This document shows positions 6,825 to 61,284 of a stretch of DNA of 64,000 bases, in pieces. The DNA comes from Octopus sinensis (Eukaryota), in NCBI RefSeq assembly GCF_006345805.1, contig NC_043013.1:56048001-56112000 (forward strand). The letters are read 5' to 3'. Position 1 is the stretch's first letter. Every line of letters starts with the position of its first letter. A program made the translations under genes and the position numbers. Below the pieces are notes generated by a model. That model was given only the letters and a program-made list of their open reading frames with translations. It did no database searches and was not told the DNA's origin.

Positions 6825-7327
6825 ATCGCCATACTAATATGGCAGTCTATAAATATAAGACTAAAGCTGTCACCAATTAGCTCCAGGAGGCCATTGCCTC
6901 CAGCTAGCTATATGACACACGAACCTGCGTCCATTACAACCTTCGAACAGGGAAGGTCAGCTGCTTCACCGTGCTAGTCAGACATCTGCAGACATGTTTC
7001 ATGGTTGTTGCCCTTTATCAATGCAGCGTAGTCAGAACCAGCGGGTGTTGCTACTGATCGTCTATTCGAAGATTTTATTTACCTAGTTACAGTGGAATAC
7101 ATCCACTTGTTTTCAATAATAGAAATATTAAAATTACTAAGTTCGAAGGTTGTAATGGACGCAGGTTCGTATATCATATAGCTAGAGGCGATGGCCTCTT
7201 GGAGCTAATCAGCCACAGCTTTAGTCTTATAGTTATAGACTGCCATATTAGTATGGCGATAACTATTAATATCCAGTAACGCTGCCGTAATCTCCTTTAG
7301 AGAGACTTAGTAATTTTAATATTTCTA
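6825..7327 (-). mobile_element. Fold-back ribozyme-bearing element (Penelope pLTR / retrozyme-like) between (TA)n tracts
   Basis: Inverted pairs 6825-6948/7141-7260 and 7120-7141/7306-7327. A hammerhead motif lies in the spacer. Confidence 0.75.
6986..7026 (-). ncRNA. Type I hammerhead ribozyme, U3-A8 core variant
   Basis: Minus strand: ctgca TTGATAA agggcaacaaccat GAAA catg TC tgcag. Stem I is ctgca/tgcag, stem III is the palindrome ACATGT, and stem II is imperfect. Confidence 0.6.
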
Positions 7328-8029
7328 CTGTATATATATATATATATATATATATATATATATATATATATGTATATATATATGTATGTATGTATGTAGT
7401 AAAATTGACAGAAAGAGCCCAGTGAAGTTGGAATGGAGACTGGAAAATCCAAAGTTTCAGAGTCGTTCTTCAGAGAATTTTTGACAAAAGAGAGATGAAG
7501 GAGAGACAACAGATGCTTATATGTTTTCTGAGTTCTGATAACTGGTTGCAATTCCCATGCACACACACACACACACACGCACATATATGCATATGTATAT
7601 ATATATGTATATAGTACATAGTAAGATAGTGGTTATGAGGGTAACCCACTATGGGATATCAGTTATCCAATATACTGCTGGTGAAGCACCCATAAGGCAA
7701 ATACATAAATGCTTATAATTGCAATGCAATTAATTCATTTATTGTATTGGATATATATATATATATTTATATATATATATAGATAGATAGATATAGTGTA
7801 CATGTATGTGTGTGTGCATGTGTGTGTAGGCACGTATGTGTGTGCATATACACACATAGAAGTGCACACACACACACATGACAGGCCTCTGAATGGTCTC
7901 CTCTACTTGTACTTGCAAAGCAATTGTTGAGGCCAGGTGTATAGTATTAGACATTTGCCCAGGGTGCTTAAGGTATCCTATAACAGGATCGGGTGGGCAT
8001 GTTAAGCTAGAGGTGAGGAGTTAAAACTG

Positions 8030-8235
8030 ACACACAAGTTGGATGTTGTGGGATTTGAACTCAGAATAGACAGAAGTGAAACAAATACCATAAGACATGT
8101 GATCCTATGCCTTAACAAAGCAACCAGATAGCCACCTTAGATTGGATGTTTATTTATTGACCCTGAGTGGGGGAAAGGCAATATTGACAGCAGTTGGATT
8201 TGAACTTTGAAAGCAAGGAACTGCAGTAAATGTTG
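8030..8235 (-). mobile_element. Two decayed tRNA-derived SINE heads
   Basis: Reverse B-box motifs ggatttgaactcagaa (~8051) and ggatttgaactttgaa (~8196). Confidence 0.5.
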
Positions 8236-58500: not shown

Positions 58501-60594
58501 ATAAGCAAGCATGCATCAGGGCTGAATATAGACAAAGACTCAGTTACTAAATACATTCATATCAACAAAGGGACAAGTAGGGGAACATCCCAATGAAATT
58601 TCCTCCAAATACGAGTATAACAGATCTAATTGTTCGAGACAGGAAAGCAATTTCCTGTACAGTAAGAGAAGTCAGCTGCTTTAAGGATGTGAACTTTTCC
58701 GCACCAAATGAGGAAGAAGGAAGAGCGTTATTTAAGGACAACAGCTTTGAAGTAAATAGCTTCTCTGCCTTGATTATAAATTCACATATCATCATTATTT
58801 TAATGTTCATCTTCCATGCTGGCATAGGTTGGAGGGTTTTTCCAGAGCTGGCAAACCAGAGAACTTGACAAGGTTCCATTTCTGAATCCCCTTTCTACAA
58901 CCAACCACTTAACAGAGTGAATTGTGTGCTTTTTATGTGGTAACAACACCAGCAGGGTCATTGAGCAACTTGCAAGATGACCCCTCAGCTGGGAGTGTGA
59001 TTGACAAGGATATAATATAATAACAAAGCCATTAATTATCAGTATAAATGTGAATTTAGAAATTGAGGTAGAGGTGCAACAATTGCAGACATCTAAGGAT
59101 TTTCAGGTAAGGAAAGTAAACAGTTAACTTGTATTTCACAAATGTACTTTATGAATACTGTAAGTTGAACAATAAAGATCTGGAAGACTTTTCTAAATGG
59201 CAGCATCTATTACATTTTGTATTCCAGATTCCAGCAACACAACTTTATTTTCTTTGTTAATATCCAGTTCCTTATGCATAGAAAGAATTTAAAAACACAA
59301 ATATACATTCATAATTTTATTATTTCTTCTATTATCCATAAAGTTACTCTTCAAAATTATCCGACTGGGATGGCTCAAAAGTAGAAATACAAATTGCCAA
59401 TAACAATCTGTAGTCAAAAACATGAGGCTACCAAAAGTCGTTCATTGATTATTTAAATGTTTTCAAACTCTGATGGCTGTTTTATGTTGTGTGTTTTGGT
59501 TACCTCGATCTTACTTTCGTTTCATTTTACTAACAAAAATATTATAGAAATATTATAAAACACAGAAAAAAAAAATAGAAGGAAGCTGAGGGAAAAAATA
59601 CAGTTGAATAAGAAATTTGTAGCAAGAAGGAAAGTTTTTAAAAAATTAAATAAATTGGTTAATTCTTTTTTTTTTTTTTTCTTTTAAGCAAGTTACAGAT
59701 TTGGAAACTGATATTTCTGGTACATTGTTGAATCTATCTATCTATCTATCTATCTATCTATCTATCTATTCTGTGAACCGTAAAAATTAATACAGAGAGT
59801 TGCTTATTTGCAAAAAAAAAAAAAAAAAAAAGAAATATAACATGTGACTTCATTGACCGAGGTTACCGTGGTCTTTTCCGTAGGCTTTTCTTTCCACGGT
59901 TAAACATCACCTGTCCTCCCCTTTACACTTCATATTGACATTTCTGTGATAACGATCCCTATTGATCAATTTTTTTCCTCTCCCCCTTTTTTTTTAACCC
60001 CCCCCCTTTTATTTTGTCCTCTTTCTCTCCTTTTACGATCCCTTTTGATCGACTCCCCCCTTTTTTTATTTTTTAAAAAATTTTTATTTTATTTTTTTAT
60101 TTTTTATTTTTTTTATTTTTTAAACCTTCAAAAGAAAAGCTCTACCTTGTAATTTGTTCTATCTGTGTGCAGCCCTGTGTGGCTAATAAAGAAACATATC
60201 TATCTATCTATCTATCTATCTGTCTATCTATCTGTCTATCTGTCTGTCTGTCTGTCTATCTATCTATCTATCTATCTATCTATCTGTTTGTCTGTCTGTC
60301 TATCTATACAGTAATTGTACATATTTGTGTGTGTATGTGTATATCCATGTGTGTGTGTTTGTATGTACATATCTATATATACATACACACACAGATACAT
60401 GCAAGCATATGAGTATAAATGTATGTACATAAGTGCATACATATGTGTATGTAATATATATATGTGTATATCTATATATCTATATATCTATGTATATATA
60501 TATATATATATATATATATATATATATATATATATATATATATATACATATATATATATATATACATATATATATATATATATATTATATTTAT

Positions 60595-61284
60595 ATATAG
60601 AGGGCATTATACATACATGCCAGGAGGCATTATATATACATGCCAAACGCTAAGAGGGACAATCAGTCATTTCTACCAAAAATATTACTAATCCCACCGA
60701 AGCACATGGGTGAGTTTATATATATTACATCCGGGTAAATGGTAAACTTTTACGAATTGCATTTCGGGAGAGGAAAAGTTTTTTCGGAATAAAAATTTAG
60801 CAATTAAGGACAACTACTTAATAAGGAAAACTTAACAAGAAATTGTCAGGTAGATAGCGTAAAAACCTCATAAGAGAAAAAATTTCGAAAATAATTATTT
60901 CTTCGTTGATGTTGATCAGTTAGCTGATCGGCTTAAGCGAGGCAGGGTCGTTGTTTATTTATGATACATTCAGGCCTGCTGATGAATACGTAAGTATGAA
61001 ATCACTGTGATACAGGTCTATATTTTTTAAATGTCTTACTTTGAAAAATTGCATTCGGTGGGATTAGTAATATTTTTGGTAGAAATGACTGATTGTCCCT
61101 CTTAGCGTTTGGCATGTATATATAATGCCTCCTGGCATGTATGTATAATGCCCTCTATATATAAATTAATATGTTCAATAAGAATAATTATTTTCGAAAT
61201 TTTTTCTCTTATGAGGTTTTTACGCTATCTACCTGACAATTTCTTGTTAAGTTTTCCTTATTAAGTAGTTGTCCTTAATTGCTA
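60595..61284 (+). mobile_element. Interleaved double inverted-repeat ribozyme element between (TA)n tracts
   Basis: A 60595-60700 / A' 61055-61160 and B 60798-60899 / B' 61183-61284. Both pairs appear essentially identical. Confidence 0.8.
60972..61019 (+). ncRNA. Type I hammerhead ribozyme
   Basis: aggcctg CTGATGA atac gtaa gtat GAAA tcactgtga TA caggtct. Stem I has 7 bp, stem II is GNRA-capped, and stem III is near-palindromic. Confidence 0.88.

Follow-up and report, generated by a model that had tools for sequence, protein, structure and literature searches.

Eleven type I hammerhead motifs, probably the 3' ends of Penelope-like elements and their passengers, in 64 kb of the Octopus sinensis genome

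Introduction

Type I hammerhead ribozymes are known from Penelope-like elements (PLEs; Cervera and de la Pena, 2014, PMC4209133), where their role is still debated, and from non-LTR retrozymes (PMC7229834; bioRxiv 10.64898/2026.07.22.740005). The published PLE and retrozyme literature describes the same architecture as that presented below, with the hammerhead near the 3' end of the element. In the giant squid 235 hammerheads have been counted, and the annotation of O. vulgaris holds 893 recently active unclassified SINE families against 30 Penelope families. A literature search returned nothing on hammerhead ribozymes in octopus among the matches listed, and neither of the two retrozyme studies deals with a cephalopod in the portions available.

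The window considered here is a stretch of 64,000 nucleotides of the O. sinensis genome. Its eleven motifs are real hammerhead sequences of type I, and very probably each marks the 3' end of a different one of eleven unrelated repeat families, at least one of which is a PLE and the rest likely PLEs or non-coding passengers; the copies are likely for the most part inactive solo leftovers of 5'-truncated insertion into (TA)n.

Hammerhead Motifs of the Window

All eleven motifs of the original prediction are present, 0-6 nt from the predicted positions and with the predicted strands and stem III strings. Together with their elements, they are as follows:

6824..7330, minus strand: family A element, in which a ~362-bp unit is partly repeated in tandem, with a (TA)n tract on either side
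6986..7026, minus strand: family A hammerhead with stem III ACAUGU, H17 at 6991, and the U3-A8 covariant core that 27 of 29 relatives have
10435..10561, minus strand: family B hammerhead, core intact, 96-nt stem II span, H17 at 10441
28466..28550, plus strand: family C hammerhead, core intact, H17 at 28546
32077..32137, minus strand: family D hammerhead, core intact, CpG-decayed stems, H17 at 32082
32148..32201, plus strand: inverted family D 3' end, directly upstream of the family D motif
34642..34719, plus strand: family E hammerhead with an intact core, its H17 (34715) preceding (TA)n by 46 nt
41414..41465, plus strand: family F hammerhead, core decayed in the window copy, nearest relatives with a U4C core
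41575..41663, minus strand: family G hammerhead, core intact, U.U at the stem II base
45831..45919, plus strand: family H hammerhead, G12A and stem lesions in the window copy, intact in the majority of 18 relatives
47376..47418, minus strand: family I hammerhead, fully intact, H17 at 47380
52763..52798, plus strand: family J minimal hammerhead, A6U core (CUGU-N-GA), extra A before stem II, stem III ACGU, H17 at 52794
60582..61293, plus strand: family K retrozyme insertion within a stretch of (TA)n, in direct orientation over 60901-61293 and with inverted parts over 60582-60903
60972..61019, plus strand: family K hammerhead, intact, 7-bp stem I, 4-bp stem III, H17 at 61012

The window copy of family A has one stem II mismatch, and in that of family B, an old family with 72-82% identity, the core-proximal pairs of stem I are broken. 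The family C element spans about 28440-28620 and ends at (TA)n, while families F and G meet tail-to-tail at one (TA)n tract near 41530-41545. Family I is young (94-99%), its element covering about 47170-47450. The flanks had been described as sharing no obvious sequence, and this holds, because there are no cross-matches among the eleven window elements.

A strict descriptor, demanding exact CUGANGA and GAAA, a stem I of at least 4 bp, a stem II and UH, matches five of the motifs (cores at 28470(+), 32132(-), 34646(+), 47414(-) and 60979(+)), and these five window copies have the complete type I core with three helices and an open stem I. The other six (7021(-), 10555(-), 41418(+), 41657(-), 45837(+) and 52767(+)) fail the scan and are counted as real, since for each the majority sequence of the matching genome-wide family carries the fold. 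Seven motifs had been listed as clean; those at 28466, 32071, 34642, 47376 and 60972 pass the strict scan, and those at 10433 and 41576 have core-proximal mismatches. The copies listed as mutated include one that is decayed (41414) and one with G12A (45831), whereas the core at 52763 is the state of its family. The covariant reported at 6986(-) is borne out by its relatives. Family majorities have a canonical or U3-A8 core in A-E, G-I and K, and F (U4C) and J (A6U) depart from it at one position. A one-mismatch scan gave extra candidates at 41869, 45903 and 58120. A general repeat search of the window was dominated by microsatellites.

Genome-Wide Families and Density

Each of the eleven motifs belongs to a dispersed repeat family of the 2.7-Gb genome, with 121-2713 first-look candidates per family. 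The family consensuses proposed as a check agree with the prediction, in that majorities of 18-29 relatives carry the fold and, where the window copies of A, B, C, E and H have broken pairs or core bases, restore them. Non-CpG core positions differ from the majority in 52 of 3075 cells, compared with 1478 of 30199 elsewhere; by a statistic that ignores relatedness, this conservation reaches p<0.05 in B, D, G and J and is not significant in seven of the eleven families.

Flanks of the sampled loci contain 22 strict motifs, 19 of which were compared with the window by BLAST and revealed no twelfth motif. The density is one strict motif per 13 kb in the window versus one per 32 kb in these flanks (P about 0.05), so that the window is ~2.5-fold richer. 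Flank sampling, which was non-random, gives an estimate of ~84,000 strict motifs (53,000-127,000), and the genome likely holds about 100,000 hammerhead motifs. The predicted density of ~1 motif per 6 kb was right in being high and overstated in counting decayed copies, and the predicted large and diverse set is indeed made up of many unrelated families. The kind of motif is already known; the density is high, the families are unrelated and the members are new.

Insertion Signature and Coding Links

Each motif lies near a 3' end of its element, and that end borders (TA)n; together with the accompanying 5' truncation, inversion or partial tandem copies this is the signature of PLEs. A (TA)5 tract occurs within 300 nt on the 3' side in 217 of 308 loci, compared with 49 of 290 upstream control blocks (the control leaves out family H loci, which are too short). 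This bias is weak in family B (9/30) and in the tandem family K (9/30). In the window, (TA)4 is found within 300 nt of 10 of the 11 motifs, versus 21% of random positions. An inverted copy is present in 20 of 30 family D loci, in the majority sequence of family I (for which one of the counts is too low) and in locus L092 of family E, and families E and I have optional 3' tails. Insertion bias towards (TA)n, 5' truncation with inverted or partial-tandem copies and an optional 3' tail are all features of EN+ PLEs.

The link to PLE proteins is most direct in family E, and the window contains these coding remains:

3..632, minus strand: interrupted ORF piece from a further PLE family, extending beyond the left edge; the hammerhead belonging to it was not found
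32446..34757, plus strand: 5'-truncated autonomous PLE of family E, with ORF tail, ~2 kb 3' non-coding region, hammerhead, and (TA)n at both ends
32451..32657, plus strand: C-terminal 69 codons of the family E reverse transcriptase (RT)/GIY-YIG ORF, 97% to the L092 ORF

The family E window copy is 96.9% identical over 2326 nt to locus L095, and ORF pieces occur in 11 of 35 family E loci. Locus L092 encodes an RT (YRDD), a CxC..C finger and a GIY-YIG-like domain and has an inverted 738-bp 3' end, so that family E has a single RT and GIY-YIG ORF upstream of the hammerhead end. The RT and GIY-YIG domains were read from motifs and 56 homologues, because Pfam and PDB searches gave no name for the protein; its finger motif suggests that family E may be of the Nematis type.

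PLE ORF pieces 30-55% identical to the family E protein are found at one or two loci each in five further families. Those of C (L117) and D (L244) lie upstream of the hammerhead and are colinear with it; in A (L262), G (L169, L320) and H (L304) the piece sits at the 5' junction in inverted orientation. At another family A locus (L256) the ORF piece looks unlinked. With queries from one PLE clade, no PLE ORF was linked to B, F, I, J or K in 19-29 short loci each, nor to three same-strand J pairs 2-4 kb apart. The predicted PLE and retrozyme origin is supported by the ORF linkage of family E, the tandem units of family K and the 3'-end architecture.

Retrozyme-Type Units and Proposed Mechanism

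Family K consists of a 480-bp unit, non-coding, of low GC (32.5%) and with one type I hammerhead, as in retrozymes; matches within arrays are at 98%, and 25 of 30 loci contain a tandem copy. Folded as a circle, the unit is predicted to be highly self-paired, like the monomers of non-LTR retrozymes (-128.3 vs -87.6 +/- 5.2 kcal/mol in 30 approximate two-letter-block shuffles). Contigs of four sequencing runs cover the unit and its end-to-start joint, and tandem DNA gives the same joint. Families F, with a 423-bp tandem unit in locus L295, and A (~362 bp) are likely retrozyme-type tandem units like K. All three would use the PLE machinery.

In the mechanism proposed, the source element would be transcribed as a tandem or read-through RNA, in which two hammerheads of the same family would pair via the palindromic stem III and excise the unit. 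The PLE RT and GIY-YIG endonuclease would copy this unit from its 3' end into a TA microsatellite. As copying would start there and usually stop early or invert, the hammerhead end would be the part most often deposited. Most window copies are likely dead leftovers, and those of I and K, with a stem III of 2-4 bp, could cleave as monomers.

Core Variants

What is new here is family J, which is very common and has an unusual change, A6U, fixed in the catalytic core. The genome contains 12,329 exact 31-mers of this family, and position 6 is U in 99 of 100 matches listed and A in none. N7 takes all four bases, H17 is mostly A or U, and the rest of the core is held. A U4C core is found in family F and in a J-like sister family. 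Literature searches found no report of A6U in hammerheads (one twister paper only), and a search with the core string gave nothing relevant among the matches listed.

These variants open an alternative that deserves serious weight, though somewhat less than an even chance, namely that catalysis has been lost from the short non-autonomous families (J first among them, and those with U4C), which keep the fold only as a 3' handle for the PLE RT. The fixed A6U and the recurrence of U4C fit this reading, as do published findings that A6C costs orders of magnitude in Mg2+ and that Naiad PLEs spread without canonical hammerheads. However, a J core that is otherwise held, with N7 free and H17 mostly A or U, is the pattern expected of a cleaving hammerhead, and U4C is published to support viroid infectivity.

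More tentatively, family J may be an active hammerhead with a natural A6U core, multiplied to tens of thousands of copies. The PLE lineages of octopus may repeatedly have tuned activity down (A6U, U4C, U3-A8, mismatched 10.1-11.1 pairs), so that cleavage would depend on dimer formation, on a protein or on some metal ion besides Mg2+. If so, the genome, with more than 100,000 motifs, would rank with the most hammerhead-dense known, and PLE-mobilised ribozyme modules would account for many of the octopus families now classed as 'unclassified SINE'.

Stem III and Host Transcripts

Stem III is usually palindromic, as predicted. The described convergence on a palindrome is not borne out, since the metazoan PLE-hammerhead consensus as published already includes this palindrome, which is not new, and common descent explains it equally well.

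The original prediction also held that the motifs could cut any read-through or intronic transcript. That solo genomic hammerheads are broadly active, cut host RNA and shape the transcriptome is improbable. Five of the eleven window copies do pass the strict descriptor, those of I and K being intact throughout, the estimate for the genome runs to tens of thousands of strict motifs, and mussel retrozymes cleave and give abundant circles. Against this, six window copies fail the strict scan, the strands are mixed (6+/5-) and no motif has a same-family, same-strand partner in the window. In the double-hammerhead model a dimer needs matching stem I arms, and the arms differ between families, so that cross-family dimers would not be expected. 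A minimal PLE hammerhead showed no monomer cleavage in a published test, and only one of nine Xenopus dimers cleaved. Among 84 ORFs none matches a non-retroelement Pfam family at the cut-off (the only Pfam results being LINE RT and one sub-threshold DUF), and the search revealed no host exon. With copies that are solo and mostly decayed, the idea that host transcripts are cut has no support, and there is no sign here of host-gene regulation.

Chance matches in AT-rich, palindrome-rich DNA would agree with the Rfam covariance models, which gave no hammerhead match for motifs I, J and K tested singly at E<=10 nor among 150 of 295 whole-window matches listed, and with monomer folds of seven motifs that are no better than shuffles (z -0.49 to +0.85), but this reading is refuted by the restored fold of the family majorities and by the shuffles, in which the five strict matches of the window fall to a mean of 0.05 (maximum 1; 40 block dinucleotide shuffles) or, with a second descriptor version, 0.13 (maximum 1; 100 shuffles), and the 22 of the flanks to 0-2.

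Comparison with Known Systems

Read as the 3' ends of PLEs and their passengers, the octopus motifs suggest a large unannotated class of cephalopod repeats, which Rfam misses. Dozens of families of different age are available in this genome, with natural core variants present thousands of times over, which makes it possible to tell cleavage from a function as RT handle; family J (A6U) and its A6 sister families are a ready comparison.

With the PLE pseudo-LTR hammerheads of Cervera and de la Pena (2014; PMC4209133) these motifs share type I topology, a palindromic helix III, the extra nucleotide before stem II (here E and J), the U3-A8 covariant (here A), and the occurrence of many divergent families per genome, mostly as solo truncated copies. 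They differ in stem III palindromes of mostly 6-9 nt, in stem II inserts of up to 96 nt and in an estimated copy number above the 2,000-9,000 reported per genome. Neither A6U nor U4C cores occur in the second of the three parts of that study's supplementary alignment (file 2), and 'CUGU' is present three times in that file, never in the core.

Family E resembles the EN+ PLEs of Neptune/Nematis type (Craig et al., 2021, PMC8557442) in its RT, CxC..C finger and C-terminal GIY-YIG-like domain, as well as in 5' truncation, the inverted 5' copy, the optional 3' tail and microsatellite targets. Its 3' non-coding region of ~2 kb and its optional tail of ~65 nt, compared with the 30-40 reported, set it apart.

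Like the non-LTR retrozymes (PMC7229834; bioRxiv 10.64898/2026.07.22.740005), family K is a low-GC tandem unit with one type I hammerhead per unit, predicted to be highly self-paired as a circle and dispersed as monomers to multimers. At 480 bp the unit is above the 170-400 nt of the former study and within the 51-972 bp of the latter; the inversions and TA targets of K fit PLE mobilisation.

Finally, the natural A6C and U4C cores (PMC3088659, PMC7151607) resemble J and F in having core position 6 or 4 substituted and the rest kept, and A6U is not named in the portions of these papers available. By contrast with those single phage or viroid examples, the family in which A6U is fixed here numbers at least 12,329 exact copies.

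Hammerhead Motifs and Their Families

The eleven hammerhead motifs are real and well explained as new members of two known kinds, PLE hammerheads and retrozymes (PLE, Penelope-like element; retrozyme, non-coding passenger with a hammerhead). All of them are found in the sequence where the original prediction placed them, and each has its own dispersed repeat family (A to K).

Hammerhead motifs (core position, strand, description)
7021, minus, hammerhead motif, family A
10555, minus, hammerhead motif, family B
28470, plus, passes strict type I descriptor, family C
32132, minus, passes strict type I descriptor, family D
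34646, plus, passes strict type I descriptor, family E
41418, plus, hammerhead motif, family F
41657, minus, hammerhead motif, family G
45837, plus, hammerhead motif, family H
47414, minus, passes strict type I descriptor, family I
52767, plus, hammerhead motif, family J
60979, plus, passes strict type I descriptor, family K

The strict descriptor (exact CUGANGA and GAAA, stem I of at least 4 bp, stem II, UH) thus matches five motifs (C, D, E, I, and K); shuffles average 0.05 (n = 40) and 0.13 (n = 100). The Rfam hammerhead models gave no match to motifs I, J, or K, and the monomer folds of the motifs are not better than shuffles, so the case for them rests on the descriptor and the families. 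Genome searches returned 121–2713 first-look candidates per motif; the best 40 were scored per search, and the relatives examined are therefore the nearest ones. The flanks had been described as unshared, and indeed no cross-matches occur among the eleven window elements. Majorities of 18–29 relatives mend lesions of the window copies: in A these affect stem II, in B and E stem I, in C G10.1-C11.1, and in H both G12 and stem I. Non-CpG core cells depart from the majority in 52 of 3075 cases and other cells in 1478 of 30199; core conservation is significant in B, D, G, and J and non-significant in seven families, by a statistic that ignores kinship.

Insertion Anatomy and Protein Link

Many families carry a motif at their 3′ end and are inserted in the manner of PLEs. 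Each dispersed family breaks off abruptly at a TA microsatellite, (TA)n, beyond the cleavage site on the 3′ side, and tapers off toward its 5′ side; (TA)5 lies within 300 nt on the 3′ side in 217 of 308 loci versus 49 of 290 control blocks. Many insertions follow an inverted copy of the 3′ end, as in 20 of 30 D loci and the I majority, and in families E and I an additional tail is optional. F and G lie tail-to-tail within one TA tract, and another tract separates D from the 5′ end of E beside it, which explains the local clustering of motifs. Some inverted ends are near-perfect (e.g., L092:500-1235 and 4758-5495, a family E locus); any transcripts of these would pair into long double-stranded RNA, a possible substrate for A-to-I editing.

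Judging by its protein motifs, family E is a PLE, presumably of the “Nematis” type. Locus L092 joins a frameshifted ORF (YRDD, CxC..C finger, and a C-terminus resembling GIY-YIG) to 2 kb of non-coding sequence and the hammerhead, and also has an inverted end of 738 bp; the window copy (32446-34757, plus strand) keeps 69 ORF codons. Among named homologues of the element protein, Octopus and Argonauta are the main sources, which together with genome size and microsatellite load points to an octopus host; Pfam and PDB gave no name for the PLE proteins. ORF pieces with 30–55% identity to the E protein over aligned parts are colinear upstream of the motif in C and D, and in A, G, and H they sit in reverse orientation at the 5′ junction (1–2 loci in each of the five families); none was found for B, F, I, J, or K among the loci examined.

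The window, at G000:C17:56048001-56112000 of the 2.72-Gb genome, is filled with repeats, including LINE RT ORFs, a mariner piece, and microsatellites, and none of its 84 ORFs revealed a host exon. Two related LINE ORFs lie at 17148-19106 (minus, 652 aa, RT and AP endonuclease) and 53694-55511 (minus, 605 aa, RT), with decayed LINEs near 38000-41000 (plus) and at 63007-63787 (minus), a mariner-type transposase fragment at 31287-31748 (plus), a pyrimidine-rich 53-bp minisatellite of about 52 copies at 3492-6227, and a 17-bp array at 1105-1370.

Tandem Units

The family K unit (480 bp, 32.5% GC) forms tandem arrays in 25 of 30 loci, and its computed fold as a circle is far lower in energy than those of shuffles; in the window, K is represented by a fragment, inverted in part, inside a TA tract. 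Tandem units also occur in F (423 bp, L295) and A (about 362 bp). K relatives show a U·U mismatch at the stem II base in 13 of 29 cases (L011-L023, G000:C11 arrays). Ahead of K sequence read in the ribozyme sense, one run X2 contig (L017:1748) has a loose end that we take to resemble a template-switch cDNA adapter; it lies away from the cleavage site and is a weak hint of transcription.

Stem III and Predicted Activity

The self-complementary stem III that had been noticed is genuine, and such palindromes are already published: the consensus in PMC4209133 includes “Palind”, and the paper also describes U3-A8 and an extra nucleotide and proposes dimers. Some stem III strings of the window are decay products: relatives of I read CGATTG (29/29), and those of G show a mix of CGATCA, CGATCG, TGATCG, and TGATCA. 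Computed dimer duplexes are weakest in J (-1.7 kcal/mol) and strongest in F (-11.1 kcal/mol), and monomer stem III helices have 0–4 pairs, most in K. Beyond the right edge of the window, at a distance of 2–3 kb, a pair of hammerheads from one family lies on one strand, 610 nt apart (L098:2183 and 2793), a candidate natural dimer.

In tandem or read-through RNA, same-family hammerheads would pair via stem III and release the unit, which PLE RT and endonuclease would insert at (TA)n, starting from the 3′ end; truncation would leave solo ends that later decay. Solo copies likely cut little, because a minimal PLE-hammerhead monomer was inactive (PMC4209133) and one of nine Xenopus dimers cleaved (bioRxiv 10.64898/2026.07.22.740005), and because an inverted neighbour is antisense and the stem I arms of other families differ. 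I and K may be exceptions to this low predicted cutting.

Core Variants

The one new lead is the abundant family J, whose core is CUGU-N-GA (A6U). Its exact 31-letter pattern, with positions 6–7 free, has 12,329 genome matches (control 0); among 100 matches listed, position 6 is U in 99, C in 1, and A in 0, and position 7 shows all four bases (counted by eye). J is also the commonest cross-family match, 16 in 712 kb or about 61,000 copies (35,000–99,000). The 59 J-type motifs in the loci examined comprise 42 U6, 16 A6, and 1 C6, those with A6 mostly belonging to sister families whose cores are canonical or U4C. A J-like minimal hammerhead with a U4C core (CCGACGA), absent from the window, is abundant (L102, L143, L248, L251, L258, L290, L295, L319). 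One metagenome record (L321:301-329) carries an A6U motif with its own different, paired stem I, which suggests that A6U is not confined to this genome. A6C is a known variant that works slowly in Mg2+ and that Mn2+ rescues, and U4C is viable in a viroid (PMC3088659; PMC7151607); A6U was not found in the literature searched, but the figures and supplements of PMC3088659 may list it.

Locus L317 (G000:C1:23638450-23642150), a single case, holds a 691-bp inverted pair (97%) that flanks LINE fragments; each member joins a J end to about 500 bp of other sequence, a structure such as retrotransposition of a read-through RNA with J at its end could leave.

Density

Flanks of 240 loci (712,130 nt) were sampled with own-family matches masked, leaving out 13 overlapping loci, K, H, L091-096, and loci overlapping the window. 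The strict descriptor finds 22 motifs there, most from further families, versus 0–2 in five shuffles. For a 2.72-Gb genome this gives about 84,000 strict motifs (53,000–127,000), A6U and U4C cores excluded and repeat flanks being a non-random sample; the window has 5 against 2.0 expected (P about 0.05).

Comparison with Known Systems

The literature listings searched show no octopus hammerhead report. The flank-based estimate of density, from a non-random sample, is high among the published counts compared: about 2,000 + 1,300 minimal motifs in Schistosoma, 4,000 in coelacanth, and 9,000 in Xenopus (PMC4209133), retrozymes numbering 5,000 in mussel and up to 120,000 in axolotl (PMC7229834), and 235 Rfam hammerhead matches in giant squid. 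The families share (TA)n ends, 5′ fading, inverted copies, and the optional tail with PLEs as described in the available text of PMC8557442. The tandem units of K, F, and A match non-LTR retrozymes (PMC7229834) and fit the PLE origin proposed for retrozymes (bioRxiv 10.64898/2026.07.22.740005).
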